IMG/VR virus record: IMGVR_UViG_3300013901_000015
Coordinates: 1-64,000 of that record
Source of the DNA: a virus
Lineage: Duplodnaviria > Caudoviricetes
Reading direction: 5' to 3' (one strand)
DNA: 64,000 bases
In this document: positions 38,876 to 57,256 of the stretch, one piece after another
How the letters are laid out: every line of letters begins with the position of its first letter
How positions within the stretch are numbered: position 1 is the stretch's first letter
Program-made: the position numbers and the translations under genes
The notes under the pieces: generated by a model
The model's input: only the letters and a program-made list of their open reading frames with translations
Database searches by the model: none
Told to the model about the DNA's origin: nothing

Positions 38876-41800
38876 ATGGGATATGACAGAATAGATTCGA
38901 TGTACGATGCACTATCCAAGGATGGCGCACAGATTGGTACTAGACAACAATTCAAGAAACTCATGCTAGCGCCTGGTAAGCAGGGCTATAAGAACCGACT
39001 GGGCTTCTATAATGCGATGAAACAGGACGGTGCCCAGATTGGTAACTCATACGAGGACTTTGCTCGGGCGATGGGGCTTCATGCGGTGAAGCCTCAGCAA
39101 GCTAGAGCACAGAAACCTGTGTCTCAGCCTAGCAAGCCTATGACTACTGCAGAGAGGGCAAGGCAGATTGGTCAGGAGTATATGCAGGGAAAGGCAGGAA
39201 AGAGCAAACAGGCTAGTGCTGGCAACACTTCTAGCACCGACTATATGAAAAACTGGCAGTTGATGCACAAGCGCAATGACCAGATGACTCCAGTCGAGCA
39301 GATGCAAGCCAACACCATGCGTTCTCGCATGCAGCAAGCACAGAAACAGGCTAGTCAACAGGAGCAGCGCAGGGCGAACCCTATCAGTCAGAGCAGAATC
39401 ACGCCGACTGCACAGAATTTCAACGAGACGATGCAACAGCTTTCGTCTTCACAAGCAAAGAGGGCTAGAGCGGTGCAGCAGCGAGAGGATGATGCCAGAA
39501 ACTTGGCTCAATATGAGGTGGAGGGCAATCAATTTGCTCATAACGATGGCAAGTTTGGAACCATTGCGCCAGAGATTGATTCTCTAGTTGCTCCTTCAAT
39601 GAAGGAAGCGGACGATCTGTCTTGGACTCAGTATCAGCAGGACTTGAAGAATGCTGGCAATGATGCTTATCTGAGAAACAAGGCTTGGAAGGACTTGCAG
39701 GACAACAGAATTAAAAACCGCCAGAACGTACTTGCAAACAACCTTAGTGCAAAGTTGCAGGAAATCTACTCTCAGAAAGGGCTGCAGGAGCACATTGTAC
39801 AGAGTGCAGATAAGCTGAATATGGGCGTTGAGGAGTATGTGGATAAATATGTTACCCCTCAGATGATGCAGCGTGCTCAGAATATTCTCGGCGTGAAGAA
39901 TATCGAGGAGATTTTGCCTCAGAGTGCCACGGAATACGTGGTGAGAAGACTCAGCGACTCTATCTTGGGTACTTTGTCGGCAGGACAGGATAAATCGAGA
40001 GAACAGATTGCCAGAGAGCAGGAGGCGATGGCTATTTCTGACGGATTGGAAGAAATGCCTACAGTAAAAGGTTACAAGGCAAACGAAGGCTACAAGTCTG
40101 GTGCCGGCGCACGATTTGCTTCTACGGCTGCTAACATGGCGATGGACTCCCCTATCCTCGGAATGACAGGCGGCGCAGCTAATATGTCGGTCGATTTGGG
40201 TAAGCAGGTACTGATGGGAGGTCTCGCCAAGGCAGGATTGGTGAAGATGGGTGCCAAGCTGACCGCACAGCAGTTGGCTTTCAAGGCTGCCAATATGACT
40301 ATGGCGCAGAAGATTGCTTCTGGCTTGGTGGAAGGCTCGGCAAAAGGTGCGCTCAACTTGGGTGGTTACTCTAGTATTACGTCTGCACTCGGACAGGCTT
40401 CCACTGGTAATGATACTTCTTTGTCGGCATTGGGAAAAGCAGCATTGGAAGGCTTCGAGCACGGTGCCACTACTGGTGCGATGTTCGGCGTGTCGGGTGC
40501 TATCATGGCTCCTTGGGTGTCCAAGTTCGGCATCAACGGATTGGAGACTAGCACAGGAGAGAAATGGTTGCACGGCGCACAGAAGCTTGGTGCCACTGGT
40601 GTAGGTCTCGGCGTGGAGGCAGGAACAATGATGGTCGCAGACAATATCACTGGTGACAAGGATATTTCCGTAGGCACATGGTTGGAAGACTTGGTGATGG
40701 TGGGCGCATTCAAGGCAGGAGAACCTAAGAATTACGCCCATATCGGTAGTGCTCTATATGGTCTTGTGCATAACACCAACAACACCTTCCGTGTGGGAAA
40801 AGACCAAAACGGCAAATGGCGTACGGTGGACATACACATGACGAAGGACGAGCAGAACGAGTTGATGAACTCTGTTTCTGGCAAGAACCTCGTGGAAACA
40901 TTCCAGAAGGTGGATAAGTCTAGCCTCAACTCAAAGACTCCATTGGATAAGAGTATCACCAAGCAAGCTTATCAAGACTTCATGAACGACCCTAACGTAT
41001 CGCAGAGCACCAAGGAGAAGGTGAATGCGGCGATGGGATTGTTCAATACAACGAGTGCCAAGAGCTACCGTAGTGTGAACGATGTGCAGAACAAACAGAT
41101 TCTGGAGTATTCGAAGAACGGTACCTTGCTCACTCGTACCTCTTATAAGAATGCAGATGAACGCCGTGCCATCCTATACAAGCAGAAGTTATATAGAGAC
41201 AACGAGGAAATGAGGTCTTTAGCAGGTTACTCTAAATTGAAAGACTTACAACCGACTGACGAGAACGGAGAGGTTACACGGCTCGCCTTTGCGTTTCTTA
41301 CAGACAAGGGGTATAATCCAAACGAGACTGTTACGGAGGCTAACAATGCTCGATTAATTGCAGGGTTGCGAGACAAGAACAGCGACCTGTACAAGGAATG
41401 GGAGAAGTACGTGGATAGATTCGGTTCCCTCGGTATGCTGATTTCCGATACAAGAACGTGGAAGAATGGCTTGTTGGAGGTATTCATCGGAGACAGAGAA
41501 ATAAGCCTTGACACCATCATGCGCAAAGACCCAATGAAGCGTACGGATGAAGAGAATAAGATTTTCTATCAAGTAAAGGATGCTTTAGAGAGCGAACTAT
41601 TCCCTAACGGTAAACCTCATGCCGATCAGAGCGAAACACAGGGACAGAGTGTTGCCGAGGACAACAACCTTGGAACCGACCAGCCTAACGGAGAGGCGGT
41701 GAAGCAGGAGTTGAACGGACTGAGACAGGCTGAGACTGAAATGGACGTGCTGATGCGAGACAATGATGTGTTCAGCCAGAACTTCAAGAAGCTACAGAGC

Positions 41801-44800
41801 CAGGGTCTTACCAATCCTCAGATTTATGATTGGATGGTTCAGAACGGACTGACACAGGAACAGTTGGAACCATTTGCCCATTATATCAATGCGAACGCTA
41901 GAGTGCAGGGTATGCAGGAGGCTACCAAGCAGAAGATTGAGGAAGTGGTGAGCGGTGTCGTGCAGGATTGGTCTTACCATGGAGAGCTGAACGGTCAGAA
42001 GATGAACGGCGAACAGGTGGTTTATGTGCAGGACAGCGAAGGCAGAACCTTGATTGTTGGCTCTGGAGACGTGGCATTTGACTCTACCACTGGGCGTGCG
42101 AAGGAAGACGTGGGCGATCTGCTTATCTGCTTCGACCCTAACACCAAGGAAATGGTGTACTTGAAGAAGGATGATGTTACCTTTATGCAGACTCAGAATC
42201 CCGATGATTTCGGCAATGAGTATCGCCAGAGATTGCAGATGATTAACTCTCAGCCTTACAATGAGGCTGCTCAGGAACAGGCGATGCAGGATGCAGGAAA
42301 GTCTGAAAATCAGAATCAATCGGAATCAATCGGAATCAATCAGAATCAAAATTCGGAATCAAACGGAAGCGAGAAAGCACCACAAGTTGATACCACTTCG
42401 CCAGAAGCTAGTACCATAACGGCGAAAAATAATACCACAAAAGAGGGCTTAGCACCACAAGAGCAGCCTCAGCAGACCAGAAAGTTTGCAGATGGCACCG
42501 ATGTGCCTATGACCAAGGACAGCAAGGGAAGACCTACGCCCGACTATGGAGCGATGAAGCCAGAACAGGCGGCTGAGATTCTTTCGCAGGACTTCGGAGA
42601 GAACGCCGAGAAGGTGGTTGATGGGCAGATTAAGAAAGCCGAGAAGGCTTTGAAGGATGCCGAGAAGATGAAAGTGGACTACACCGCCGAGCCTAACGAC
42701 ATCTTGGAACAGGAGCAAGTGAAGGCTCAGACCGTGGAAGCTGCAAAGAAACAGCTTGAACAGGCGCAGAACATCAAGAAGGCGATGACTGCCAAGGCTG
42801 TGGCGGAGACCGTTGGCAAACCTACCGATGAAAAGGTGGAGGGTGCTAACGAGGCTAGCAGCGAGGTAGCCAAGAAGTTCCAGAATGCGCCGAGATTGCA
42901 AGGCAACCACGTAAGCAAGCGTCTGCCAAACGGCGATAAGATTAGCGGACACTATGAGATTGTTCCTGCCGAAAGCTTGACTCCTTCGCACGATGTAATG
43001 AATGACTATAAGAAGTCAGAGGGCTTCCCTGTGGATGCAGAGGGAAGAACTATAAATGATAGAGACTATGAGCACGACAAGGCGGCGCAACAGACCACCG
43101 ACCAGATGGCTCAGAAGTACAGCGGACAGGCGATTTCTCAGGTGCCTACGGTATCTGACGAGGGTATCGTTTACGATGGCAACGGAAGAACCATGGCAGG
43201 ACAGAAGGCTGCGAAGAACGGTACAGATGCTGAATACATCGAGGACTTGATGGACAATGCCCAGAACTATGGCTTCACCAAGGAGCAGATTGAGCAGAGT
43301 GGAATCGAGCATCCACGTCTTGTGATGGTAACTGATGAAAGATTGCCTTATGATACGGCTACCTTCTCCATGTTCAACAGAAACGAGAAGAAGACGCAGA
43401 GCAACACCGAGCAAGCTGTGGCTAAGGCTAAGACCTTGACTAGCGACGAGGTGGGTGCCATCGTTGCCGACATTGAGGGAAATGGTAGCTTGGATGCTTT
43501 CTTTAACAATTCCAAGGCAATAAATGACTTGGTGAAGACGTTAGTAAGTAAAGGTGTCATCGGACAGAACGAGGTGGCTGGCTTCATGGATGGTCCAGAC
43601 AGACTGTCGGCGCAGGGCAAGGAGTATGTGAAGAACCTCTTGCTTGGCTCTGTGTTCAAGCCAGAGACTATCCGTATGCTTGGAGTGGATAGCAAGATCA
43701 AGAACGCTGCCATCAATGGCATTCGTGCCATCATGGATAACTTGAAGCTGGGCGACTACTCTCTGCGTGACGAGATAGACCAAGCCATACAGTTGCTCTA
43801 CGAGGCTGGAAGAAACAAGATGAGCGTGGATGACTTGCTGAAACAGAGCAGTGCCTTCGAGGAGAACGCTAGGGATAGATTCCCGATGATTGCACAGGCT
43901 ATGGCTCAGGCTCTGGAGGATAAGCCTACGACTTTCAGAGAGTTGATGAGCGAGTACAACAACATCGCCAAGAACTACAACACGAACGAGGGCACCTTGG
44001 GATTCTATGATAAGTTAACGCCTGAGCAGGTTGTGGAGGAGTTCCTCAACGCTAGCAAGGCTATCAAGAACAATAACATCAAGCTATATGGAAAAGAATC
44101 AGAAACTGAAAGAAGCAATGATGCTGCTGGCAATGAAGAACCTTCAAATGAAGCAGGAGGTGCAGCTGGCACAGAAGGAAATGGGAATGCTGAAACAGAA
44201 CCAGAAATAAAGGTTAAGAAAGCATTGAAGCGCATCGCTACCGAGATTACCAAGCAGACAGGTATCGAGGTGGTGACGGATGAGCAAAAAGCCAAGAAAG
44301 CACTTGATGAAACAGAAAACATCAAGGTACAGCGTGCATCCGCAGGTAGCACAGTTAGTGGTATGGAAAAAATGCCAAAGGGTTTGCAAATGAATCCTAG
44401 CGTATTGACCGACCAGATACTTAACTATCATGGCGATCATATCGCAAAGCTACTTGGTGAAGTACCAGAGGATAGTACTGTTAAGTATTTCTCTGCACAC
44501 AATGGAGTTTGGTATTTCTACCGAGTAGATCATGACCGCAATATCATCCTTGATGGTGCCATTTCTGCCAACAAAGACAATTATCGTGAATACGAACAAA
44601 AGATAAAAGAGTATTATGGAATTGACGGCGGCGCAGAAGCTATTTATAATTATGTGCAAGAAGCAGGGTTTGACACAGGAGCAAACCGCAATTTGCATGA
44701 CTATTTTCTCGAAGGAGGAAATACGAGACATTCTGCAATGGGTGAGCGACCTAATGAATCGCAAGGGGAAGCCAGAGTTGAAGACAACAGAACTTCTGGA

Positions 44801-47800
44801 CGAACTTTACGACAGGGCTCTAGCGAAGAACAAAGCGGAGCGATTAAGGAGTTCCGTTCTGCCAACGGTGAGGTCTATGGATTCACGGTAGATGGCAAGA
44901 TTTATCTTGACACCAAGAAGATGAAGCCTGAGACCCCTCTGCATGAGTACACCCATTTGTGGACTGAGGCTTTGAGGAACGGCAACCCTACAGAGTGGGA
45001 GAACGTGAAGAGTCTCTTCGATGAGGTTGAAGGACTGAAAGAGGAGGTTCAGAAGCTGTACCCTGAGCTAAAGGGCGATAACCTTTACGAGGAGATGATT
45101 ACCACATTCTCTGGTCGTGAGGGTGCCAAGAAGCTTGAAAAGGTTGTGCGTGGTCTCGCTAAAGAGGATGGAAAGACCGTAGAGGAGAGAGCCAAGGCTA
45201 CAGGCTTTATCACCAAGGTGAAGGAAGCTTTGCAGAAGTACTGGAAGGGTGTGGCTGACATGCTTCATATCCACTTCACTTCTGCCGAGGAGGTTGCCGA
45301 CAAGGTTCTTGCTGATTGGGCTAGCGGCTTCAACCCAAATAAAGCTTTCGATGTAAATGACAGAGATGGCGATTATACGAAGAATAACGTTGAATACATT
45401 GTTAAAAATACAAAACTCCCATTTGGCAAAAAATACGGAGAAGAACTATCTCAAGAAGAAGTCAAGTCGTTATTCTATGGGGATAATGATTACTCAAAGA
45501 AATACGGCAAACTATTCGATAGAGTTTACGATGTTGCTCGAAAACTAGGTATAAAAATTAGCTTCAAAATACCACCAGAAACTTATAGTGCTTATGGTCT
45601 AGCTGATTTGGATAACGTATATCTAAATCCTATACTTCTTGCAAGAGGAGAGCATAAGGTTTTCCCAAACAAGAAGTATAGCCTTTACGTTAAAGAAGAT
45701 ACGCTTCCACATGCAATGTTGCATGAGTTAATACATTCTGTTACAGCCTACGCTTTGGAAAGATATGAAAGAGACAAGGATAGTATGCCTAAAGAACTAA
45801 GGGCAGCTGCGGAGTCTTTGATAGATTTGTATGAAGCTACGAGAAAGGCAACTCTGGATTACGTTAATGAATATGGAAGAGAGAATGAACAAGAATTTAT
45901 CGCTGAATTATCTAATCCTAATTTTTGTAAGCTTCTAAAGAAGACAAATGTTTGGACTAGAGTGAAAGATGCGATAAAGCAATTCTTCTTCCCTCTGATT
46001 TCTTCCGAAAAGAATGTGTTGGATAAGTCGTGGAAGGAGACAAACTCTTATAAAGAGCTTTCTTCTTTACTTGATGACTTTTTAGAGCATAGTGACAAAG
46101 GTCTATTTGAAGAAGAGATTGGTGTGCAGAACGGTGAAATCAAGGGCAAGGAAGAAGCTAAGGAAGAACCTGTTCCTATCATGCCGAAGCCTGTAGATCC
46201 TAGCAACCCTATAGAAAAGGCGGCTGAGGACTACAAGAAGGAGCATCCTTTGAGCGAGGATGAAATATTGAACACTACGGCGTTCGATGGTTTGCCTGAA
46301 GACCAGAAGCAGTATTGCATTGATGCGGCTTTGGACTATCTGAATGGCGAGGACACTTCGGCTATTTCCGAGGCTTACTATAGAAACGCCTACGAGAAAC
46401 GTTCTAGCCGTCCTGCCGAGACAGCGAAGGTTGCCAAGGCAGACAGCGAGACTGTCAAGGCTGGACAGGCTGAGGTTTCTGCCGACCCAATGGAAGGAAT
46501 CAAGAATGCCGCAGAGGGATTCGAGCAGGAGAAGGCTGAGAGGGAAAGAAAGCAGAAGGAGGCTACCCAGAAGGTTCTGAACGTTATCAAGGCTTCGAAC
46601 GAAAAGGCGAAGACCAGAAAGCAGTTGGAGGCAGAGAAGAATGCAGCGGACAATGAGTTTGAGGCATTCATGAAGGAACTACGCAAGAAACAGAGCGGTC
46701 AGCTTAACTCTGGCTTCATCGACCAGAACTTGATTGAGGCGGCACCAAAGATGTTCTCTCTTGCAGCAAAGTGTGCCTACACTCGTATCAAACTGGGCAT
46801 GTATGATGCCAAGGAGGTGGTGAAGGATTTGCGCAACCGCTTCAAGGATGCTTTCGATGGATTCGACAAGCGAGACGTGGAAACCTTCTACTCTGAAATC
46901 ATGAACCAGAAATGGCGTGATGGTGATAAGAGAATGAGCCTCAACGAGTGGGCAGAGCATTACAGAAAGCTTTCTCCTGAATATAAGGAGAAACTGGAAG
47001 GCGACTCGAAGGATGCCGAGGAAAGGAAGATGAGCGAAAAGAAGTTCATTGACCGTGTGAACATTCGACTTGGATTCGGACAGAAGATAAACGGCATCGT
47101 TGAATTGAGAAAGATGGCTGAGGAATGCGGCTTGAAGGATGTGAAGGACACAGACCTTCAGGAATTGGCAGAGACTGCCATTGTGCAGAGAGCTAGAGGT
47201 ATCGCTTCGTCTGCATCCACAAATGATGCCAAGAAGTTTGAACTCATCAAGAAGCTTTACGAGAATCAGCCTAGCCTCAACCAACGTGATTCTGAGCGAG
47301 TGATGAAGCAGCAGTATTCTACCCCTGCCCCATACGCTTTCTTGGCAGACATGTATGTGAAGGGAGGCGGCAAGGAGGTGAAGAGCGCATTGGAGCCTAG
47401 CGCAGGAAACGGTATGCTTACCATCGGCTTGCCTATGGACGTGGTGCATGTGAACGACATTGACGCTCAACGTTTGGCGAACCTGAGAAGACAGGGCTTC
47501 AAGAACGTGACGAGTCAAGACGGTACTCAGCCTTTCGCCGACAAGGACGTGGACGTGGTGGTAACTAACCCACCATTCGGTAGTGCAACGCCAAAGGAGT
47601 ATGACGGCTACAAGATTTCCTCTCTGGAGGGTCAGATGGCTATCAATGCCTTGGAGAGCATGAAGGACGATGGTCGTGCTGCCATCATCATCGGCGGCAA
47701 GACGGAATACGCCAAGAACGGAAGTCTGAACCCAAAGGATAAGGCTTTCCTTGGTTATCTCTATAGCCACTATAATGTGGAGGACGTGATAAATGTGGAT

Positions 47801-50800
47801 GGCAGTCTCTACGCAAAGCAGGGAACGACCTACCCTACACGTATTATTTTAATAAACGGAAGACGCAAGTTCGACCCAGAAAACAAGGTGTACCCACCAG
47901 TGGAGAAGAACGCTAGAGCAGAATCCGTGAAAGATTATGACGAACTTTATAAAAGAATAAACGATGACATACTACGTAGCAAAGACAAATCCGTGGATAT
48001 TCACGGAGAAGAAAAGCGAAAAGGTGACAATGCAGGTGGTAGAACAAACGTTTCTGATTCTACTAAAGAGAATGGTGGACGAGTCGGACGAATGGGAGAC
48101 GAAGGAGTTTCTGACAGAACTCCTGCAAATCCTAAACAGACTGAACTGGACACAAGCACCCGACCTGTGGAGCAACGAGAAGATGCCAACGGAGGAACAA
48201 CTGAGAGTGCTAGCGATGGAAATAGTAACCCAGACACAAGAGGGGGACAAACTTCTGTACCACAATCTGAACGAACCGATGGAAGTAGCGGACGAGGAGA
48301 CAACTCTATCTCTGGAGGAAGCAACACTAGCGCAACTGATAACGGAACAGATGGACGAGAGCGTGGAGTACGACTACAGTCCTCAGATGTTCAATCAGTA
48401 AGCAACACTCCTACCCAACCAAAGGAAGAGAAGAAACAAACTTTGACTACAGAGAAGGTTGCATATACCCCTAGCAGTCATTCCATGTCGCTCGGTGCCG
48501 TGGTACCAGCTAGACAAAAAGAGGCACTTGAAACGGTATTGAATAAGCTTGGCGATGCCGACCAATACTTGGTAGATAACCTTGGCTATAATGACAAGGA
48601 AGATTTGTACGCACATCTCGCCGCCGAGCAAGTGGATGCTGTTGCCTTGGGATTAAAACAGATGGAGAAAGGCAATGGCTTCATTATTGGAGACCAGACT
48701 GGTATAGGTAAGGGAAGACAAGCTGCTGCCATCATTCGTTATGCGGTTAAGCAAGGTAGGATTCCAGTATCGTTCACCATCAAGCCTAACCTTTTCTCTG
48801 ACACCTATCGTGACTTGACAGACATTGGTAGTCCTGAATTGCGTCCATTTATCCTAGCCTCCAGCAAGGATGGCAACATTAAGGAGAACTACGATGAAGA
48901 GGTGAAAGGACTTGACGGAAGGGTTACCAAGGTAAGAAAACAGCGCATTATATATAATGTGCCAAGCACTACAGAAACACAACGAGTATTAAAATATATC
49001 GCAGAAAACGGAAAATTGCCAGAGGGATATGATTATATCCTCACCACTTATTCGCAAATCAGAACGGGTTTGCAGGAATATAAGGGTGGCAAGTGGAAAG
49101 ATAAGAAAAAGATTAATGCAGCTGACCGCAACGGACAGTTGAAGCGTGATGCTATTGAAAAACTCGCAGAGAACAGTATCTTTATACTTGACGAAAGTCA
49201 TGATGCCGCAGGTGAAGGAAGCGGAAGTGCATTCATTCAGAAGGTTTTGCCAAAGGCTAAGGGCGTAACATTCCTTAGTGCTACCTATGCAAAAACTCCT
49301 GATGCGATGAAACTGTATGCCTTGAAGACAGACTTGGGCAGTAAGAGCAAGGACGAAAAGGACGAAAAGGATGATGCTTCTTGGAAAATTCTGAATGCCA
49401 TCAAGAAAGGTGGTACCGTGTTCCAAGAGATTATGAGCCAAGCCTTGACACGAAGCGGTCAGATGATTCGCCGTGAGCGAGATATGACTGGCGTAACCAT
49501 CGACTGGAATCCACTTACCGAGGACGAAACAGAGATTCAAGCACAACGAGACAAGTTTGACAATATCTTTGGTATATTCAACGACATATTGAACTTCCAA
49601 CGTACTTACGTGGATGCCAAGTTGGGGGAAATGAGCGATGATGCCGCATTAATCCAAGGTAGCGTGGACCACACACCTGGAACAAAGGATATGGGTATCG
49701 GCAACGTTACATTTGCAAGCAAAGCTTACAATGTAGTACAGCAAGCACTCTTCTCCATCAAAGCTGAGAAGGTGGCAGACTATGCCATCGAAGCCATCAA
49801 GAACGGAGAGAAACCTGTTATCGCAGTAAACAACACCATGGAGGGTATGACAGACGAGTACCCGATGGGAGAAGTGATGGATATGCCAGACCTTAATACT
49901 ACCCTTATGAAAGGTTTGGAAGGTATATTGAGATACACCGAGAAGAATGAATATGGAGACCGAGACAATAAGGTATTGAGACTTGAGGAACTTGGCGAAG
50001 AAGCAGTGGCACGATATAACGAAATCAAGGAAAAGATAGCATCTGCCACAAGCGGACTGAGCATCAGCCCTATTGATGTAATCAAACACAGGTTGGAGCA
50101 AGCTGGCTATCGTGTGGGAGAGCTGACTGGTAGAAACACCGAGTTCGTATATAATGAGGATGGAAAAGTGGTAAGACAAAAGCGCACCGATACCAACAAG
50201 AATGCCTTGGCAGACCGATTCAACAATGGTGATCTTGACGTGCTTATCTTGAACCGTTCTGCCTCAACTGGTATTTCTCTTCATGCCTCTACTAAGTTTA
50301 AAGACCAAAGACAGCGCACCATGATATTCGCTCAGATGCAAGGGAATATCAACGAGGAGGTGCAAATGCGTGGTCGTATCGACCGCACAGGACAGGTAAG
50401 ACGAGGAAAGTACGTTTACTTAGTTTCATCCATCCCAGCCGAACAACGACTGATGATGATGTTTAAAAATAAGCTGAAATCATTGGATGCCAACACTACT
50501 TCTTCGCAGAAGAGTAAATTTAACGAGGTAGATGTGCAAGACTTCACCAACAAGTATGGTGACGAGATTGTTTTGCAGTATATGGCACAACACCCTGAGT
50601 ATTACAATAAATTAGCAGACCCTCTTGGTTGGGGGTTCATGGAGTATGCCCAAGATGGTTTGTCGCTCACAGAGTTGAAAGAGAAAACAAAATCAACCAT
50701 TACTTCACCTGCATACGAAGTAATGAAAAGACTTACCTTGCTACCAGTAAAGGAGCAGGAAGTGGTATTGAAGGATATATCTGACACCTATGCTCAAAAG

Positions 50801-53800
50801 ATTAAGCAGTTGGATGACATGGGCATGAACGACCTTGAAATAACTGACATGCCTTTGGAGACTAAGACCTTAAAGCGTGAAGTATGGAAGGAAGGTTCTG
50901 ACCCTGGCGGCGATAATGCCTTTGCTGATAACACTTATATCGAAACCGTTGAAATGAATGTATTGAAGAAGCCTATGAAGGCTGACGAGGTACAGTCAGC
51001 GCAGAAGAAGATGCTTGACGGAAAGGATTGGGAAACATGGAGAAGCGATAAGATTGCCGAAATCAAGAAGGCGCAACAAGCCAAGATTGAGGAAACAAAG
51101 GCAAAGATGGCTGAGCAGATGGAAAAGAAAGCTGCCAAGACAGAAGAGAACACTCGCAAGGCTCTGGAGAAGCAAAACGAAAAACTCCAAAAGAGAATAG
51201 ATAAGGGTGAAGAACTTAAACCGGGAGAGCATGTCTTAACGGAGGATGAAATCGACAATAGAATTAGTGCTGTTGTGGATGATGTTAAGCGTAAAATGTT
51301 GGATAAGCAGTCGGAAGCTATTGCTGGAGTAAACACTAAATACGAAATGTTTATCGGTCCACTATATGTTTTTGACCCTGACAAGACAGTTAGCGTTCCT
51401 ACCGATTGGTATCTGGAAGACGCTAGTCCTTCTACTTATCCTGAGTTTGGTAGAGTCATCGGATTCAAGTATGACAAGAACTATAATCTTGGCTCATCTT
51501 CCATAGTGATTGCTACAACTGATTCTAGAAAACGTGTAGAAATTCCTCTGACAAGACCAAAGGCACTTAGTAGAATAGAAACGGACACCGAAAGATTCGC
51601 CAAGGAGTGTAATGTTATCACAATGAACTCTTGGGATAGACTGATTCCAAAGAAAGACCGCACTACTGGGCGCATTATCACAGGAAATATGTTGGAAGCT
51701 TTGGCTGACAACAAGAATATCGGTCACTTGGTTTCTTACACTACCGATGATGGGAAAGTGAAGCAAGGCATCTTGGTACCTGATAGCGTGAGCACTGAGG
51801 AGATTACAGGTAACATGCCTATTGCCAAGGCTTACAACTGGTTTACCAAGAAAGAAGGTGGAACTGAATTAAAGTCCACTGACGGAAATTTAAGATTAGC
51901 CAAAAACTTTGGCTCCATGTACACCCTCTATGTGCCAGCTAGCAGAAAAGAAGGTGGTAAGTATTATCTGAACAAAGAGTTACTCGACTTAGTACACGGT
52001 CATAACTTCCAGTCGAAAGGAAAGAACTTCTGGGCTACATTCGATGCAGAAAAATTGCACGATGTGCTTCATATCTTGAATGGTATGGAAGTTCAGGTGA
52101 AGACCCCTAAGGACTTCGAGGAAAGCAGAACCCACTTCCGTGAGGATCGAGGCATTCAGTATTCTAAAACAGATGCAAAAGATGTTAAGAATAGTAGAAT
52201 CATTCCCGAAGATGTGGATAAAAGTGTATCTTCGCAGATTGAAAAAACTTATGACTCTGCCATCGAAGAGGCTTATAAATATGTCAGTGAGAAAGACAAG
52301 ACTAGACTTCATTCTGATGTTGAGCGAGACTTGCGTGAGTTCTCAAAGATGCGCAGAGAAGATATTGTTAATGATATAAAACAAAGAGAATATGATTTTA
52401 GGGAGTGGGAACGTAGCGGAGCAACGCCTGATAAGGGAGGCTTTGTCGGATATAGATATGCTCGGTTTAAAGCTGCCGAAGCAGCAGCCAAACGAGAGCT
52501 GGACTATAGAGACGCTAGAGCAAAGCATCTCTCAGATACTTACGGATTGCAAGAAGGAAGAGAAAACAATCTTGATGAGGTGGCTCGAATTTATCGAGAA
52601 CTTCAAGAAGAGAAAGATAAGGGACGAGATGCGTTGTTCTCAAAAGCACTGGATATTGTAAAGCGACTAGGCACTGAGTTTGGTGGCATAAATGATGCCC
52701 CTGCAGAAAACTATGCTGGTGTATCTACCACTCAACGAGAGGTGGCTTTGTTTATTGATACGCTTGCAAGAACTAGTACGAGAAGAGAAGCCACTGCTAA
52801 GACTTTGCTTCACGAAATGATACACCAAGCTACGGTTGGCGCCATAAACCTTGTGCGTAGAGGAAATGCAGAAGGCTTACTTACACCTAAGCAGATTGAT
52901 GCCGTAAATACCATTTTGGATATTTATGACAAGGCTGTGGCTGATGGTAGAATTCATTATCAAGAAGGTGTCAAAAGCGACTATGGAGGCAAGAATCCTT
53001 ATGAGTTTGCTGCTCAAATGGCAGATACTGTTCAGCGCAAAAAGCTTGACTTTACATTTGGACAGAAAGTAATGAATGCCTTTAAGGAACTGTGGAATAA
53101 AGGCGATAGGTCTTGGAAGGATGCCTTCAAAGATGCTTGGGGAAAACTCTTAGAGACATCTGATAAGAAAAAGATGGATAAGGCAATCAGCGACATCATG
53201 GAGGATTTCAATGAGACTATTGATGATATTTCTATGAGAGATATTGAGTCTAGAGGAGGAACCTTCGCTGACAAACTTTCTAACGATTCTCCTGTTTCTT
53301 CCCACATTGCCCAACTGTCAGAAAAGGTAGGTGACAAGGTGAACATGGTTCATTCTGCCGATGAGGTAACCAACAAGCAAGCAAAGGAAGCCATCGAGGA
53401 AGGCAAGCATATCACTGGCTGGTATGACGAGAAGACTGGCGAGGTACATCTTTACATGCCTAATATCCACGACCGGTACACTGCCGAGAAGACTATCTGG
53501 CATGAGGTTGTGGGACACAAGGGAATGAGAGAGTTGTTTGGTGAAGACAGATTCAACAGGTTCCTGCGTGATGTGTGGTATGACTTGGATAAGCCTGAGA
53601 ACGCCGACTTGAAGAAGTTGGTGATGGAGGAAATGAAGTACAATCCGTTCAATGTGTATAATGCCATTGAGGAGGGTATCGCCCGACTTGCCGAGGAAGG
53701 AAGAGGCGAGGCTGGTTTCTGGAGAAACTTAAAAAATAAGGTTTCTGACTTCTTGCACGAAATCGGTTATCGCATGGCTCCTAACACCAAGGATGTGAAG

Positions 53801-56800
53801 TATCTGCTCTGGTTGAGCAAGAACTTGCAGAAGAATCCTAACGATCCTTACTGGAAGATGAGAGCCGAGGCGGTGAAATACCGTCTCGACCATGAGGATG
53901 TGCCTGACGTTATCGCCAAGGATGGTATGTTTCAGAGTAATGATGGCAAGGCTCGGGACTTGGGCGACTTGCCTAAGGCTGAGTACCAAGAGGCAACTGA
54001 CGGAAAGATTCATTTCCGCACTACCCCATCGGCTGGCACGGCTCTTGATAGATACCATCGTTCGCTTGATGAGCACGGCTATATGTTCACTGAGAGTTAT
54101 ATGGACAATATGCTTTCGCTTAAGAACTTGATGACGGCGATTGCGCCTGGCAAGAAGATTGAGGATATTGCCTCTTCGGAGAATCCTTATATCTTGCAGA
54201 ACACGATGCAGGGAGCGATGAGCGATGCGGCAAGAATGTTTGAGCGCAACGTGATGAAGCCTCTCGACAAGGCGATGGCAGGGGTGCTTGATGCCTTCGA
54301 GGGCAAGAATGACGATGAGAAGATTCGTAACTTCAACCTCTACATGATTACCAAGCATGGTTTGGAGCGCAACCGTATCTTGTATGTGCGTGATGCCTTG
54401 AAGGACATGCGCATGGACGAGAAAAAGAAGAAGCTTGCCGATACCATTGAGAATGATTGGGGCAACGAGAAGGCGACACTTGACGAGAAGTTGGAGCGTG
54501 GCGACATCGACTTGAAGGAGTATTACAAGCAGATGGATGACTTCATCCGTACTTACGTGGATGAAACGAATAAGTTTGATGCCGGCGAACACGACTATTC
54601 GGGCATTCACGCCATTCAGAAGGTGGAGAAAAGTTCCGACCCTTACGATGATGCGGAGGCTATACAGAGCGTGATGGACTCTGAGGGCAGAATGGAGGAC
54701 ATCAAGAAGGGCGCAGTGAAGGACTATTGGGATAAGGTGAAGACTGCAACCCAGTATTCCATCGACTGTGACTATAGGAACGGACTGATAAGCAGGGAGC
54801 TGTATGGTCATGTTTCGGAGATGTTCAACTGGTATGTGCCTCTGAGAAAGTATGACGAGGCTACGGCGGAAGATACATACGGATATATCACCGAGAAGGG
54901 CGACCCTAAATCTTACATCGGCAAGACGATCATGAGGGCAAGGGGTCACAAGTATCTGAGTGAAACGAACATCTTGGCTCAGATTGGAGCGATGGGCAAC
55001 CGTGCCATCAAGAACGGCGGACAGAATGCCATCAAACAGGCGTTCGCTAGATTCATCAGAAACAACTCGAACAATAATCTTGTGACGGAAACTAGCGTTT
55101 GGTATGTAAGCGACCCTATCACTCAGACCACCGTGGAGCGTTACCCAGATATTCCTGACGATGCGACTGCTGACGAAATCAGCCAGATTGTTAGCGACTT
55201 CAATATGGAAATGAAGGACTTGGCATCGAAGGGATTGGCTACGAAGGTGTATCGCAGAGGAAGAATCGGGTATAAGTTCCAGAGAGCGGAGAACAAATCT
55301 CAGCATATCGTTGATGTGATGATTGCAGGAAAGAAGCACTCCTTCATCGTGAACGGAAACCCTAGGGCTGCACAGGCTCTGAATGGATTGCTGGAGCATA
55401 AGAATGAGACTGGCATCGGTAAGATTGCTGGCAAGATTTCTAGATTTATGGCTCAGACCTGTACGTCTTACAACCCAGAGTTTGTGATGAGAAACATGAT
55501 TCGTGACTTCGAGTTTGCTTCTTCTAACCTCTTGGCTAAGGAAGGTGCAAGATATACTGGTATCTTTGAGAAGTACTATGCGAAGGTTGGTATCATAGAG
55601 GGTATCAGAAATTCTAAGCTGAGCGACTTCAAAGACACAGGCGGTTTCGGCTTGTTTGTCAAGTATCGTAACGGAACGCTTGACACTTCCGACAAGATTC
55701 AGAGATATTTCAAGGAGTTCATGGAGAACGGCGGCGAAACAGGTTGGGTACAGATTAAGAGCATGAAGGAATGGACGGAAGAGTATAAGCGTGACATCAA
55801 GGCAGAGCGCAACAAAGCTGTCAAGGTAGGAAAAGGATTCTACAATGCCATCTTTAAGAACTTGGAAAATGTGAACGAGATTGCCGAGAACATGGCTCGT
55901 TTCGCTACCTATTGTGCCAGCAGAGACAGCAATCGTTCGGTAGTACGTAGTGCTTACGATGCGAAAGAGGTGTCAACCAACTTCAACCGACATGGTTCTG
56001 GTAGTGAAATCAAGAGCTTCAAGAATGGTGAGATGGGATGGTTCGAAGAAAAACGCAAGCAAACCTATCGCTACACCTCTGCTTGGTTCAGAAATACCTC
56101 TATGTTCTTCAACGCAGGTATTCAGAGTACCAACTTGCTTGTAAAGAACTTGAAGAACAATACAGCTGGCACCTTGGGATATATTGCAAGCGGTCCTATG
56201 ATTAGCGGTATGGCTATCGCTCTGCTCAACAACTTCCTTATCGCCAACGAGGACGAGAAAGACCGCAAGGGAGTGAAAGACCCATACGGCGAGTTGCCAG
56301 ATTACATCAGAAGAAACAACTTATGTGTATATGTGGGCGGCGGCGAGTTTGTTACCATTCCGCTTGCCATCGAGGAAAGAGCCTTCTATGGACTTGGCGA
56401 CTTGGTGGCAGGACTTACATTCTCGCCTAACATTAGCGGACAGAAGAACCCTTTCTTGGATGCAGTGGGCTGCATGTCGCAATTAGTTCCTGTGGCTGAT
56501 TACCTTGGCAATGCTTCATTTGGTAAGCATCCTGTTCAAGAGACGGTGAAGGCTGTGATGCCTTCGGCTACCTCGCCATTTATCGAATGGGCTTACAACA
56601 GCGACTGGAAAGGTGCTCCTATCGAACGAGACAACAAGTTTGACGAGAATCAGCCAGCTTGGATGCTCGCTTACAAGGGTACTCCTGACGTGTTGTTGGA
56701 CTTAAACAAGAAGGTTAATGCGTGGACTAACGGTGTAGCCCCAGGTAATGAGGATATGCTTGGAAACAGCTTCTTGGATGCGGTTACTAATCCTTCGGGA

Positions 56801-57256
56801 TTGCAGCACTTCTATAGTAGTTATCTCGGTGGTGCGGCTACCTTTGCGGAGCGCACGCTTGGGCTTATCAAGCATGGCAAAGATACCGAGACCAAGGATG
56901 TTCCTTTCGTCCGTTCTCTCTTCTATACGCCGAGCGAGCAGACTAGCTTGCAGAGGACGAAGAGCAAGTGGTATAACTACAAGGACGAAATGGAGGTTAC
57001 CATGGCGAACGTGGATAGACTGAAAGCGAAGAACGTTCCGATTGACAAGAGACTATCGAACATCGGGGAGTATTACCACTTCCAGAACTCGAAGGATGCT
57101 GTGAAGGTAAGAGTGATTGAGCTTGCCGAAAAACAGATGGAGCAATGGAAGAAGCTGAGAGACAAATCCTCTGATACCGAGAGCATCAAGTTTGCTAATG
57201 AGAATATTGACAGGATCATGATGGATGCGGTGGAACAGCTGGATAAGCTGAACTAA
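38876..57256 (+). CDS. Giant (6126 aa) polyvalent ejection protein: DdrB-like ParB, four zincin motifs, N6-adenine MTase, Strawberry-notch SF2 helicase, LPD38-like C-terminus (DarB-like)
   Basis: ESLTPSHD/RDY (about 42970); HEYTH 44942, HELIH 45722, HEMIH 52811, HEVVGH 53501; LEPSAGNG and NPPF (47567); GDQTGIGKGRQ (48689), ILDESH, STGISLHA, QMRGRIDRTGQ; C-terminal YIRRNN...IPL. Confidence 0.9.
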   Translation: MGYDRIDSMYDALSKDGAQIGTRQQFKKLMLAPGKQGYKNRLGFYNAMKQDGAQIGNSYEDFARAMGLHAVKPQQARAQKPVSQPSKPMTTAERARQIGQEYMQGKAGKSKQASAGNTSSTDYMKNWQLMHKRNDQMTPVEQMQANTMRSRMQQAQKQASQQEQRRANPISQSRITPTAQNFNETMQQLSSSQAKRARAVQQREDDARNLAQYEVEGNQFAHNDGKFGTIAPEIDSLVAPSMKEADDLSWTQYQQDLKNAGNDAYLRNKAWKDLQDNRIKNRQNVLANNLSAKLQEIYSQKGLQEHIVQSADKLNMGVEEYVDKYVTPQMMQRAQNILGVKNIEEILPQSATEYVVRRLSDSILGTLSAGQDKSREQIAREQEAMAISDGLEEMPTVKGYKANEGYKSGAGARFASTAANMAMDSPILGMTGGAANMSVDLGKQVLMGGLAKAGLVKMGAKLTAQQLAFKAANMTMAQKIASGLVEGSAKGALNLGGYSSITSALGQASTGNDTSLSALGKAALEGFEHGATTGAMFGVSGAIMAPWVSKFGINGLETSTGEKWLHGAQKLGATGVGLGVEAGTMMVADNITGDKDISVGTWLEDLVMVGAFKAGEPKNYAHIGSALYGLVHNTNNTFRVGKDQNGKWRTVDIHMTKDEQNELMNSVSGKNLVETFQKVDKSSLNSKTPLDKSITKQAYQDFMNDPNVSQSTKEKVNAAMGLFNTTSAKSYRSVNDVQNKQILEYSKNGTLLTRTSYKNADERRAILYKQKLYRDNEEMRSLAGYSKLKDLQPTDENGEVTRLAFAFLTDKGYNPNETVTEANNARLIAGLRDKNSDLYKEWEKYVDRFGSLGMLISDTRTWKNGLLEVFIGDREISLDTIMRKDPMKRTDEENKIFYQVKDALESELFPNGKPHADQSETQGQSVAEDNNLGTDQPNGEAVKQELNGLRQAETEMDVLMRDNDVFSQNFKKLQSQGLTNPQIYDWMVQNGLTQEQLEPFAHYINANARVQGMQEATKQKIEEVVSGVVQDWSYHGELNGQKMNGEQVVYVQDSEGRTLIVGSGDVAFDSTTGRAKEDVGDLLICFDPNTKEMVYLKKDDVTFMQTQNPDDFGNEYRQRLQMINSQPYNEAAQEQAMQDAGKSENQNQSESIGINQNQNSESNGSEKAPQVDTTSPEASTITAKNNTTKEGLAPQEQPQQTRKFADGTDVPMTKDSKGRPTPDYGAMKPEQAAEILSQDFGENAEKVVDGQIKKAEKALKDAEKMKVDYTAEPNDILEQEQVKAQTVEAAKKQLEQAQNIKKAMTAKAVAETVGKPTDEKVEGANEASSEVAKKFQNAPRLQGNHVSKRLPNGDKISGHYEIVPAESLTPSHDVMNDYKKSEGFPVDAEGRTINDRDYEHDKAAQQTTDQMAQKYSGQAISQVPTVSDEGIVYDGNGRTMAGQKAAKNGTDAEYIEDLMDNAQNYGFTKEQIEQSGIEHPRLVMVTDERLPYDTATFSMFNRNEKKTQSNTEQAVAKAKTLTSDEVGAIVADIEGNGSLDAFFNNSKAINDLVKTLVSKGVIGQNEVAGFMDGPDRLSAQGKEYVKNLLLGSVFKPETIRMLGVDSKIKNAAINGIRAIMDNLKLGDYSLRDEIDQAIQLLYEAGRNKMSVDDLLKQSSAFEENARDRFPMIAQAMAQALEDKPTTFRELMSEYNNIAKNYNTNEGTLGFYDKLTPEQVVEEFLNASKAIKNNNIKLYGKESETERSNDAAGNEEPSNEAGGAAGTEGNGNAETEPEIKVKKALKRIATEITKQTGIEVVTDEQKAKKALDETENIKVQRASAGSTVSGMEKMPKGLQMNPSVLTDQILNYHGDHIAKLLGEVPEDSTVKYFSAHNGVWYFYRVDHDRNIILDGAISANKDNYREYEQKIKEYYGIDGGAEAIYNYVQEAGFDTGANRNLHDYFLEGGNTRHSAMGERPNESQGEARVEDNRTSGRTLRQGSSEEQSGAIKEFRSANGEVYGFTVDGKIYLDTKKMKPETPLHEYTHLWTEALRNGNPTEWENVKSLFDEVEGLKEEVQKLYPELKGDNLYEEMITTFSGREGAKKLEKVVRGLAKEDGKTVEERAKATGFITKVKEALQKYWKGVADMLHIHFTSAEEVADKVLADWASGFNPNKAFDVNDRDGDYTKNNVEYIVKNTKLPFGKKYGEELSQEEVKSLFYGDNDYSKKYGKLFDRVYDVARKLGIKISFKIPPETYSAYGLADLDNVYLNPILLARGEHKVFPNKKYSLYVKEDTLPHAMLHELIHSVTAYALERYERDKDSMPKELRAAAESLIDLYEATRKATLDYVNEYGRENEQEFIAELSNPNFCKLLKKTNVWTRVKDAIKQFFFPLISSEKNVLDKSWKETNSYKELSSLLDDFLEHSDKGLFEEEIGVQNGEIKGKEEAKEEPVPIMPKPVDPSNPIEKAAEDYKKEHPLSEDEILNTTAFDGLPEDQKQYCIDAALDYLNGEDTSAISEAYYRNAYEKRSSRPAETAKVAKADSETVKAGQAEVSADPMEGIKNAAEGFEQEKAERERKQKEATQKVLNVIKASNEKAKTRKQLEAEKNAADNEFEAFMKELRKKQSGQLNSGFIDQNLIEAAPKMFSLAAKCAYTRIKLGMYDAKEVVKDLRNRFKDAFDGFDKRDVETFYSEIMNQKWRDGDKRMSLNEWAEHYRKLSPEYKEKLEGDSKDAEERKMSEKKFIDRVNIRLGFGQKINGIVELRKMAEECGLKDVKDTDLQELAETAIVQRARGIASSASTNDAKKFELIKKLYENQPSLNQRDSERVMKQQYSTPAPYAFLADMYVKGGGKEVKSALEPSAGNGMLTIGLPMDVVHVNDIDAQRLANLRRQGFKNVTSQDGTQPFADKDVDVVVTNPPFGSATPKEYDGYKISSLEGQMAINALESMKDDGRAAIIIGGKTEYAKNGSLNPKDKAFLGYLYSHYNVEDVINVDGSLYAKQGTTYPTRIILINGRRKFDPENKVYPPVEKNARAESVKDYDELYKRINDDILRSKDKSVDIHGEEKRKGDNAGGRTNVSDSTKENGGRVGRMGDEGVSDRTPANPKQTELDTSTRPVEQREDANGGTTESASDGNSNPDTRGGQTSVPQSERTDGSSGRGDNSISGGSNTSATDNGTDGRERGVRLQSSDVQSVSNTPTQPKEEKKQTLTTEKVAYTPSSHSMSLGAVVPARQKEALETVLNKLGDADQYLVDNLGYNDKEDLYAHLAAEQVDAVALGLKQMEKGNGFIIGDQTGIGKGRQAAAIIRYAVKQGRIPVSFTIKPNLFSDTYRDLTDIGSPELRPFILASSKDGNIKENYDEEVKGLDGRVTKVRKQRIIYNVPSTTETQRVLKYIAENGKLPEGYDYILTTYSQIRTGLQEYKGGKWKDKKKINAADRNGQLKRDAIEKLAENSIFILDESHDAAGEGSGSAFIQKVLPKAKGVTFLSATYAKTPDAMKLYALKTDLGSKSKDEKDEKDDASWKILNAIKKGGTVFQEIMSQALTRSGQMIRRERDMTGVTIDWNPLTEDETEIQAQRDKFDNIFGIFNDILNFQRTYVDAKLGEMSDDAALIQGSVDHTPGTKDMGIGNVTFASKAYNVVQQALFSIKAEKVADYAIEAIKNGEKPVIAVNNTMEGMTDEYPMGEVMDMPDLNTTLMKGLEGILRYTEKNEYGDRDNKVLRLEELGEEAVARYNEIKEKIASATSGLSISPIDVIKHRLEQAGYRVGELTGRNTEFVYNEDGKVVRQKRTDTNKNALADRFNNGDLDVLILNRSASTGISLHASTKFKDQRQRTMIFAQMQGNINEEVQMRGRIDRTGQVRRGKYVYLVSSIPAEQRLMMMFKNKLKSLDANTTSSQKSKFNEVDVQDFTNKYGDEIVLQYMAQHPEYYNKLADPLGWGFMEYAQDGLSLTELKEKTKSTITSPAYEVMKRLTLLPVKEQEVVLKDISDTYAQKIKQLDDMGMNDLEITDMPLETKTLKREVWKEGSDPGGDNAFADNTYIETVEMNVLKKPMKADEVQSAQKKMLDGKDWETWRSDKIAEIKKAQQAKIEETKAKMAEQMEKKAAKTEENTRKALEKQNEKLQKRIDKGEELKPGEHVLTEDEIDNRISAVVDDVKRKMLDKQSEAIAGVNTKYEMFIGPLYVFDPDKTVSVPTDWYLEDASPSTYPEFGRVIGFKYDKNYNLGSSSIVIATTDSRKRVEIPLTRPKALSRIETDTERFAKECNVITMNSWDRLIPKKDRTTGRIITGNMLEALADNKNIGHLVSYTTDDGKVKQGILVPDSVSTEEITGNMPIAKAYNWFTKKEGGTELKSTDGNLRLAKNFGSMYTLYVPASRKEGGKYYLNKELLDLVHGHNFQSKGKNFWATFDAEKLHDVLHILNGMEVQVKTPKDFEESRTHFREDRGIQYSKTDAKDVKNSRIIPEDVDKSVSSQIEKTYDSAIEEAYKYVSEKDKTRLHSDVERDLREFSKMRREDIVNDIKQREYDFREWERSGATPDKGGFVGYRYARFKAAEAAAKRELDYRDARAKHLSDTYGLQEGRENNLDEVARIYRELQEEKDKGRDALFSKALDIVKRLGTEFGGINDAPAENYAGVSTTQREVALFIDTLARTSTRREATAKTLLHEMIHQATVGAINLVRRGNAEGLLTPKQIDAVNTILDIYDKAVADGRIHYQEGVKSDYGGKNPYEFAAQMADTVQRKKLDFTFGQKVMNAFKELWNKGDRSWKDAFKDAWGKLLETSDKKKMDKAISDIMEDFNETIDDISMRDIESRGGTFADKLSNDSPVSSHIAQLSEKVGDKVNMVHSADEVTNKQAKEAIEEGKHITGWYDEKTGEVHLYMPNIHDRYTAEKTIWHEVVGHKGMRELFGEDRFNRFLRDVWYDLDKPENADLKKLVMEEMKYNPFNVYNAIEEGIARLAEEGRGEAGFWRNLKNKVSDFLHEIGYRMAPNTKDVKYLLWLSKNLQKNPNDPYWKMRAEAVKYRLDHEDVPDVIAKDGMFQSNDGKARDLGDLPKAEYQEATDGKIHFRTTPSAGTALDRYHRSLDEHGYMFTESYMDNMLSLKNLMTAIAPGKKIEDIASSENPYILQNTMQGAMSDAARMFERNVMKPLDKAMAGVLDAFEGKNDDEKIRNFNLYMITKHGLERNRILYVRDALKDMRMDEKKKKLADTIENDWGNEKATLDEKLERGDIDLKEYYKQMDDFIRTYVDETNKFDAGEHDYSGIHAIQKVEKSSDPYDDAEAIQSVMDSEGRMEDIKKGAVKDYWDKVKTATQYSIDCDYRNGLISRELYGHVSEMFNWYVPLRKYDEATAEDTYGYITEKGDPKSYIGKTIMRARGHKYLSETNILAQIGAMGNRAIKNGGQNAIKQAFARFIRNNSNNNLVTETSVWYVSDPITQTTVERYPDIPDDATADEISQIVSDFNMEMKDLASKGLATKVYRRGRIGYKFQRAENKSQHIVDVMIAGKKHSFIVNGNPRAAQALNGLLEHKNETGIGKIAGKISRFMAQTCTSYNPEFVMRNMIRDFEFASSNLLAKEGARYTGIFEKYYAKVGIIEGIRNSKLSDFKDTGGFGLFVKYRNGTLDTSDKIQRYFKEFMENGGETGWVQIKSMKEWTEEYKRDIKAERNKAVKVGKGFYNAIFKNLENVNEIAENMARFATYCASRDSNRSVVRSAYDAKEVSTNFNRHGSGSEIKSFKNGEMGWFEEKRKQTYRYTSAWFRNTSMFFNAGIQSTNLLVKNLKNNTAGTLGYIASGPMISGMAIALLNNFLIANEDEKDRKGVKDPYGELPDYIRRNNLCVYVGGGEFVTIPLAIEERAFYGLGDLVAGLTFSPNISGQKNPFLDAVGCMSQLVPVADYLGNASFGKHPVQETVKAVMPSATSPFIEWAYNSDWKGAPIERDNKFDENQPAWMLAYKGTPDVLLDLNKKVNAWTNGVAPGNEDMLGNSFLDAVTNPSGLQHFYSSYLGGAATFAERTLGLIKHGKDTETKDVPFVRSLFYTPSEQTSLQRTKSKWYNYKDEMEVTMANVDRLKAKNVPIDKRLSNIGEYYHFQNSKDAVKVRVIELAEKQMEQWKKLRDKSSDTESIKFANENIDRIMMDAVEQLDKLN
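44088..44210 (+). CDS. Nested +1-frame ORF, 40 aa (MEKNQKLKEAMMLLAMKNLQMKQEVQLAQKEMGMLKQNQK)
   Basis: Translated by hand; amphipathic helix; overlies a G/A/E/N linker of the giant ORF. Confidence 0.45.
   Translation: MEKNQKLKEAMMLLAMKNLQMKQEVQLAQKEMGMLKQNQK
44616..44891 (+). CDS. Nested +1-frame ORF, 91 aa helical protein
   Basis: Start context AGATAAAAGAGTATT-ATG; globular composition; the main frame here is linker-like. Confidence 0.6.
   Translation: MELTAAQKLFIIMCKKQGLTQEQTAICMTIFSKEEIRDILQWVSDLMNRKGKPELKTTELLDELYDRALAKNKAERLRSSVLPTVRSMDSR
47964..48401 (+). CDS. Nested +1-frame ORF, 145 aa acidic helical protein
   Basis: Start context AAAAGAATAAACG-ATG; coincides with the G/S/R/T linker between MTase and helicase. 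Confidence 0.65.
   Translation: MTYYVAKTNPWIFTEKKSEKVTMQVVEQTFLILLKRMVDESDEWETKEFLTELLQILNRLNWTQAPDLWSNEKMPTEEQLRVLAMEIVTQTQEGDKLLYHNLNEPMEVADEETTLSLEEATLAQLITEQMDESVEYDYSPQMFNQ

Follow-up and report, generated by a model that had tools for sequence, protein, structure and literature searches.

In a tailed virus (Duplodnaviria; Caudoviricetes), the giant gene for a polyvalent protein very probably is dual-coding at three inter-domain linkers, at each of which a small protein would be read in the +1 frame. The stretch of DNA analysed here, referred to as the window, comprises 64,000 nucleotides (nt) and covers positions 1 to 64,000 of the IMG/VR virus record IMGVR_UViG_3300013901_000015; the giant gene occupies 38876..57256 on its + strand and encodes 6126 amino acids (aa). 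An earlier reading made from the sequence alone (the sequence-only reading) had placed three small open reading frames (ORFs), 44088-44210, 44616-44891 and 47964-48401, in the same +1 frame of this gene, and coordinates and offsets agree with that claim: the three ORFs are present and all start at offset 1 mod 3 from 38876. Each is a complete ORF with its own start and stop inside the giant gene and on the same strand, as is characteristic of a nested gene. They are called here nested gene A (44031/44088..44210, + strand; 59 aa from a TTG or 40 aa from an ATG), nested gene B (44616..44891, + strand; 91 aa, with a conserved core formed by the first 76 aa at 44616-44843) and nested gene C (47964..48401, + strand; 145 aa, isoelectric point (pI) 4.2, charge -18), the last of which spans the linker between an N6-adenine methyltransferase (MTase) and a helicase domain.

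Judged from the substitutions among related sequences, amino acid-level selection sits on the +1 frame at A, B and C, and the main frame at these places evolves like a non-coding frame yet is kept strictly stop-free, so that it would act as a flexible spacer joining the flanking domains. The comparison set consisted of approximately 100 related loci overall, with 80 related viral loci fetched for C. None of these 80 (71 distinct sequences) has a +1 stop anywhere in the MTase-helicase linker; C starts with a conserved M[TI]YY, and its length of 146-182 aa in the related loci tracks the length of the linker. The +1 identity of C exceeds the main-frame identity in every divergence bin, e.g. 68% versus 46%, and 79 columns are conserved to at least 90% in the +1 frame versus 36 in the main frame. 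Two whole-gene scans were made, one based on the window (W, 18.4-kb gene) and one on locus L006 with its giant of 5238 aa. In the former, C is the only stretch where polymorphism peaks at main codon position 1 and is least at position 3, which is the pattern expected when +1 is the selected frame, and in the latter the C and A regions are the only well-supported stretches with a flipped codon phase. The ratio of nonsynonymous to synonymous changes (w), computed per reading frame and for C also in a κ-weighted version, amounts to 1.84 for the main frame and 0.27 for the +1 frame of C, versus 0.12-0.17 (main) and 1.2-2.0 (+1) in the flanking MTase and helicase segments that served as controls. 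A sliding scan of the whole L006-type giant found w(+1) below w(main) only at the A and C regions. Furthermore, when the C protein was randomly recoded with synonymous codons, the main frame stayed open in 0 of 2000 trials, and the +1 frame over C stays open in 0.3-12% of recodings, depending on the lineage; the failure of the main frame to remain open by itself indicates that both frames are actively kept open.

The C protein is strongly acidic (pI 4.05-4.4, charge -18 to -25, 145-182 aa), and its AlphaFold2 (AF2) model, built with 14 sequences, is alpha/beta-helical with a predicted local distance difference test (pLDDT) of 83.7 and a predicted template modelling score (pTM) of 0.80. Between lineages the aa identity of C drops to 23-32%, with the hydrophobic pattern and the predicted fold kept. 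Side by side across the same lineages, identities are 87-93% for the MTase, 23-32% for nested C and 53-59% for the helicase N-domain (48431-49555), a contrast that suggests either that C evolves fast or that the junction is a site of mosaic recombination. One of the related loci shows an expansion within the dual-coding segment: at L060:10830-11375, the equivalent of 47964-48401, a 21-nt unit is repeated in tandem and reads as E-E-[TM]-Y-R-N-Q repeats in the nested frame and as G-G-N-V-Q-K-S repeats in the main frame, which lengthens both products (the nested one to 182 aa) and breaks neither frame.

The module that carries B is rarer. An ATG in the same position opens a stop-free +1 stretch of 69-91 codons in five lineages, i.e. 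(W, L099, L102-104), (L105), (L062, L093, L106, L107, L110), (L108, L109) and (L094, L095, L111). In the W-type lineage, variants fall on main codon positions 1, 2 and 3 in the numbers 15/2/4, and w is 0.13 in the +1 frame (p 4e-6) and 0.95 in the main frame; pooled over lineages, the +1 w is 0.44 (p 1.4e-4). The domains flanking B have a main-frame w of 0.07-0.10. Upon recoding of B, the probability that the main frame remains open is at most 0.003, and that of the +1 frame is about 0.3 per lineage. The AF2 model of B is a four-helix structure (pLDDT 85.1, pTM 0.71), the disordered tail of which coincides with the non-conserved end: the last 15 aa overlap the next conserved main-frame domain and are not conserved as a +1 protein. 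Always found before nested B is a conserved main-frame block of approximately 90 aa (44339..44608, + strand; aa 1821-1910; main w ~0-0.08). The sequence-only reading had each of the three ORFs begin right after a domain-like block, which is correct for B after this block and for C after the N6-MTase but only loosely so for A, said to follow the ParB domain: A starts about 257 aa past the end of the ddrB-ParB match (aa 1352-1480), where another conserved block (aa 1650-1737) ends.

All 77 loci in which the upstream anchor is retained carry nested gene A as a +1 ORF, which starts at the same site with an invariant ATG and has 35-76 aa, in most cases 35-46. Its conserved core of 27-33 aa is written M..Q..K-E-A-M-M-[LF]..A.K-N-L for 44088..44210 and follows the pattern K-E-A/M-M-M/A-[LF]..A.[KR]-[NE]-[LV] across the loci, and many of the main-frame differences at this place (G/S, N/H, G/R) are third-position synonymous changes in the +1 frame. 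In two separate lineage groups, w in the +1 frame is 0.21 (p 7e-6) and 0.18 (p 6e-5), with main-frame values of 0.74 and 1.39 (not significant) and a +2 frame that is likewise not significant. At L051:8703-8933 and L060:8112-8342, the equivalents of 44088-44210, A runs to 76 aa and the downstream linker differs.

The main frame under A, B and C is rich in G/S/R/T/E/D/N and scarce in V/L/I/M/F, in line with the linker-type sequence described earlier from the window. This G/S/R/T/E composition would largely be the shadow of K/E/Q/L-rich proteins read one base earlier. The claim that the nested ORFs represent real coding kept by overprinting finds support in homologous giants, where the +1 frame is open and conserved, and the two-frame selection check that the sequence-only reading had named gave a low +1 w at A, B and C and the opposite in the flanking controls. 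The products would be a helical peptide of about 40 aa in the case of A, a four-helix protein of about 76-91 aa in the case of B and an acidic alpha/beta-helical protein of about 145-160 aa in the case of C. We propose that they are made by internal initiation at the conserved ATGs, with A-rich leaders of the Bacteroidota type lacking a Shine-Dalgarno sequence (A-rich sequence is indeed seen upstream of the nested starts), and that they are translated from the late mRNA of the giant itself. With a shared mRNA, the cell that produces the giant virion protein would contain A, B and C at the same time. No Bacteroidota -7 box (TAnnTTTG) occurs on the + strand within 1 kb upstream of the nested starts, and no internal promoter is proposed. 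In the whole window this box was counted 66 times versus 44 ± 7 expected, and on the + strand it is nearly absent from the first 10 kb of the giant gene.

Copies of the nested genes outside the giant were found for C and B in the search for stand-alone homologues. The C profile search retrieved 140 called proteins, with E-values down to 1e-73 and all without Pfam domains, and C forms only 23 representative clusters among 1.84 billion proteins. Most of these matches are the nested frame called on short contigs. Three of them (P0113, P0119, P0105) are ordinary free-standing C genes in Bacteroidota loci that carry a TraG-type coupling protein, a DdmD-like protein, a restriction-type helicase and HicA and that contain nothing else of the giant; in these C genes the nested frame is unbroken (0 stops), and the main-equivalent frame has 4 stops. 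In L081 and L087, the genes upstream of positions 6001 and 8001, respectively, show that the free-standing C lies downstream of the DdmD-like protein (~1230-1270 aa, PADLOC E 1.8e-20), a 667-aa protein and the restriction-type superfamily 2 (SF2) helicase, with HicA and an A1S_2505-type phage protein nearby and the TraG-type coupling protein in L081; this neighbourhood resembles a mobile or defence island. L092 has another free-standing C, which is independent of these. For B, a profile search found a free-standing 76-aa copy in a chromosomal context (L187), located 100 nt past a tRNA-Arg, where the main-equivalent frame is broken by 12 stops over a 157-codon call, 5 of them within the B part. 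The free-standing copies begin at the same Met as the nested versions. At L187:4068-4474, the intact B homologue lies ~100 nt downstream of the tRNA-Arg(TCT), the neighbours are RadA-like, QueC and thioredoxin-like genes, and the gene caller had merged the tRNA region into a 157-aa ORF; this copy may be the last remnant of an integrated element.

Distant C members with 22-31% identity to the C of the window are still nested between the MTase C-terminus and the helicase N-terminus, with an open main frame. In the maximum-likelihood tree of C, the free-standing copies branch inside nested clades (support 99/99 and 95/59) and all deep branches examined are nested, and from this tree the nesting of C looks ancestral; the polarity is not secure because of the midpoint root and the long branches. 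Metagenome-assembled genomes of Ca. Segatella violae and Segatella copri contain nested copies of C. The contig L183 (CAAGQJ010000014.1), assigned to a 'Bacilli bacterium' bin, carries the giant with a nested C almost identical to the Segatella copri copy and is probably a mis-binned phage contig. Among cultured phages, the Bacteroides salyersiae phage BS-TP4 (PQ571277, gp3) has a 114-aa +1 ORF starting with MEQKYYVAK at the same junction, which gives a weak but collinear match to the C family. BS-TP4 was detected in 31% of metaviromes (PMC12694917). No match was obtained by blastn against phages, or with C in tblastn searches of GenBank phages and PLSDB plasmids. In a far more distant MTase-helicase dyad (28% identity, labelled Acinetobacter phage MD-2021a), the linker contains many +1 stops and no +1 ORF. 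A relic of the MTase C-terminus in the free-standing C was also considered as proof of descent from the giant and was given up, as it is explained by the conservation of the nested frame itself.

Several points weigh against reading A, B and C as genes. From the window alone, the three ORFs are within chance expectation, and the case for more-than-chance coding comes entirely from the related sequences. When synonymous codons were shuffled with the giant protein left unchanged, the +1 frame of A was free of stops in 100% of the trials (14% for the TTG-extended A), compared to 30% for B and 9.5% for C, and a +1 run of at least 146 codons arose in 33% of them; the openness of A is therefore uninformative. 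The reason is that +1 stops (TAA, TAG, TGA) need a T at main codon position 2, i.e. V/L/I/M/F codons, which makes a hydrophilic linker nearly automatically open in the +1 frame. The case for A rests on about 35-75 variants over approximately 100 nt, B shows weak +1 constraint in the L062-type lineage (w 0.66, not significant), and one lineage has lost the conserved Trp of B. The invariance of the nested ATGs has little power, given that conservation is also high in the nucleotides around them, and a good AF2 score can be reached by helical sequences. Without a -7 box, expression would have to depend on ribosomes that initiate internally on an mRNA under heavy translation. Hence, the ORFs might be a mere compositional by-product of hydrophilic linkers and have no product, a notion to which the shuffles and other long +1 runs of the giant with ordinary main-frame polymorphism (56748-57023, 52392-52661) lend some plausibility. 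This interpretation, suggested by the within-window statistics, was dropped after the relatives were compared: it leaves unexplained the excess of +1-synonymous changes, the conservation of the +1 frame above that of the main frame, the confident folds and the free-standing copies in which only the +1 frame survives. It is already contradicted for C and very unlikely for the three ORFs as a whole.

Two other explanations were considered. RNA structure or a packaging or recombination signal could in principle lower the third-position variation of the main frame; however, the three-base periodicity fits the +1 codon phase, the substitutions are +1-synonymous or conservative, and the hydrophobic pattern and predicted fold persist at the low identities between C lineages given above, and the periodicity and the protein-level conservation already contradict a constraint on the nucleic acid instead of a +1 protein, which is most improbable. 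With programmed +1 ribosomal frameshifting, the giant would also be made in truncated isoforms, and the +1 segments would be the alternative C-termini of these and not separately initiated proteins. Two products from one structural gene by way of a frameshift are common in phages, and the nested ORFs share the mRNA and the strand of the giant. Nevertheless, in the window a +1 stop lies 1 codon before the ATG of C and 3 codons before that of B, which leaves no room to shift and argues against a frameshift fusion, the ATG is kept at the start in every lineage and is also the start of the free-standing copies, and no slippery motif was seen on inspecting the start region; frameshifting is thus improbable.

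As to the origin of the nested genes, it is possible, and we would put it somewhat short of probable, that the disordered linkers of giant injected phage proteins act as cradles, in which the folded A, B and C arose de novo by overprinting on a stop-free +1 frame and took over the constraint. On at least three later occasions, two for C and one for B, they would have escaped to become autonomous genes in chromosomes of Bacteroidota and in their conjugative or defence islands. The sequence-only reading had alternatively suggested whole genes absorbed during domain accretion: the nested genes would formerly have stood free between separate MTase, helicase and other genes and would have been swallowed when these neighbours fused through another frame. 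Such a history would agree with the existence of free-standing copies and with nested proteins that are (by prediction) folded and constrained above unconstrained main-frame segments, as if the spacer frame were the newer one. Against it stand the position of the free-standing C inside the nested clades and the nested state of the deep branches in the midpoint-rooted tree, the absence of a free-standing outgroup of C among the 1.84 billion representatives, the many +1 stops in the linker of the distant MTase-helicase dyad, and profile searches in which neither the C nor the B family has relatives outside this context. Absorption is therefore not favoured and rather unlikely in our assessment.

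Besides the nested genes, the main frame of the giant contains a ddrB-like ParB domain (42929..43315, + strand; aa 1352-1480; PF18763, E 2e-9), the N6-adenine MTase domain (47213..47983, + strand; ~aa 2780-3036; weak Pfam matches to MTS and UPF0020), which ends in the invariant motif ...YDELYKRI.DDILR, a Strawberry-notch-type helicase downstream of the C linker (48431..50848, + strand; AAA_34 at aa 3264-3547, PF13872, E 5e-18; Helicase_C_4 at aa 3746-3991, PF13871, E 4e-28) and an LPD38 domain, a marker of large polyvalent proteins (56279..56908, + strand; PF18857, E 1.7e-24). The combination of these four domains in one ORF identifies the giant as a large polyvalent protein; the 6126-aa ORF displays the many unrelated effector domains, the LPD marker and the MTase-helicase dyad that are typical of this group, and a DarB-like MTase-helicase dyad was described for large polyvalent proteins by Iyer et al. 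(2017; PMC5512222). The window belongs to a virus record that carries an integrase, with a phage genome of about 75 kb, and no PHROG function was found for the genes adjoining the giant. Long ORFs also occur on the - strand of the giant gene, at 39596-40741, 46679-47770 and 53729-55399 (381, 363 and 556 aa), and antisense open runs reach 747 codons; polymorphism there tracks the main frame, and these antisense ORFs, like the other long +1 runs, were treated as chance. How the annotation of such giant loci goes wrong is illustrated by a 48-kb metagenome contig (L188:1-7119), where the main frame is open for 2373 codons and the stored gene calls list the nested B ORF and antisense ORFs in place of the N-terminal part of the giant.

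Complete genes in an overlapping frame are known from other viruses. In phage lambda, Rz1 is a complete gene embedded in the +1 frame of Rz and encodes a lipoprotein that pairs with Rz in lysis, with both frames constrained. The likeness to A, B and C lies in a whole +1 gene inside another gene of a tailed double-stranded DNA phage with both frames kept, and in the production of both proteins from one mRNA, which is proposed likewise for the giant and A, B and C. Unlike Rz/Rz1, three nested genes lie within one 18-kb gene, each over an unconstrained disordered linker, and there is no relation in sequence or fold. Small viruses also have overprinted genes, with examples in phiX174 (E within D, B within A) and in tombusviruses (p19 within p22), as reviewed in PMC8227390 and PMC3494269 (see also PMC11044054); these share with A, B and C the out-of-frame dual coding, the asymmetric constraint and the narrow distribution of the nested product. 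However, overprinting in small viruses is usually explained by genome compression and its de novo product is usually disordered, whereas here the genome has about 75 kb, the nested product is (by prediction) folded and constrained, and it is the host frame that is disordered.

Regarding function, searches of A, B and C against Pfam and PHROGs gave only sub-threshold matches, and fold searches with B and C gave nothing significant. The matches of B to helix-turn-helix or sigma-70 region 4 domains are of this kind (Pfam Sigma70_r4, E 0.12, 12.4 bits versus a cut-off of 24.1; phrog_1373, E 0.049), and its fold searches returned generic helical bundles only, with a best Z of 8.0 to a designed protein and Foldseek E-values above 0.5. 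For C, Foldseek against the PDB gave E-values above 1, the best Z in VIA wide was 3.6, BFVD gave no hit, and the feature search in the ESM Atlas returned only unrelated eukaryotic clusters with low recognition. The sequence-only reading had suggested that each small protein may be an inhibitor, an immunity protein or a chaperone for the domain next to it. The free-standing loci of C and B lack the MTase, the helicase and the block upstream of B, hence the proteins apparently are able to work without those domains. Likewise, the persistence of copies outside the giant, in mobile or defence islands of Bacteroidota and beside a tRNA, suggests that C and B can apparently function autonomously.

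In phage P1, DarB is loaded into the head with the aid of small, separate proteins. This gives an analogy for A, B and C, and, as a tentative and in our view doubtful suggestion, they might serve a DarB-like injected anti-restriction machine as accessory factors that, for instance, help in its folding or packaging or are injected along with it to counter defences. The P1 DarB/Dar system and the MTase-helicase dyad (PMC5512222) resemble the giant in the DdrB-type ParB, the adenine MTase fused to an SF2 helicase and LPD38, in contrast to A, B and C themselves, which have no similarity to Dar proteins in PHROGs or Pfam, and to the helicase, which is of the Strawberry-notch type. C could furthermore act as an acidic decoy. 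Its acidity, fast evolution and autonomous survival beside defence genes would fit an anti-defence or accessory role. The acidic DNA-mimic anti-restriction proteins T7 Ocr and ArdA resemble C, which is small, very acidic, borne by phages and also present in mobile-element loci beside restriction-type and DdmD-like defence genes; on the other hand, the searches with C gave no hit in Pfam or PHROGs and no sequence or structural match to solved proteins. Moreover, part of this acidity may be a consequence of the overlap.

Out-of-frame nested genes are textbook examples in tiny viruses and in lambda Rz/Rz1. To our knowledge, few long, conserved and folded nested genes are known from large tailed phages, and such genes escape standard annotation. 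We found no report of nested ORFs in polyvalent proteins in the literature; in Iyer et al. (2017; PMC5512222) the word 'overlapping' is absent, and the one passage on a 'reading frame' refers to small ORFs near the polyvalent gene and not nested in it. Compared to the known nested genes, what is new here is the setting in the linkers of giant polyvalent proteins, the constraint on the embedded frame, the number of three per host gene and the apparent repeated export. The same sequence occurs nested, with both frames open, and free-standing, where only the +1 frame survives, which represents a natural experiment on overlapping genes. In the cultured phage BS-TP4, knock-outs of the nested ATG that are silent in the giant protein are possible, which makes the proposal directly testable. 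The three nested genes would add three unannotated protein families, one of them of ~150 aa with no recognisable fold, that are proposed to be expressed along with a DarB-like anti-restriction machine. The gut Segatella/Bacteroides phages in question form a widespread family, and one of their genes thus very probably hides three further genes over linkers that domain analyses treat as empty spacer, and the coding content of giant polyvalent proteins would hence be underestimated.

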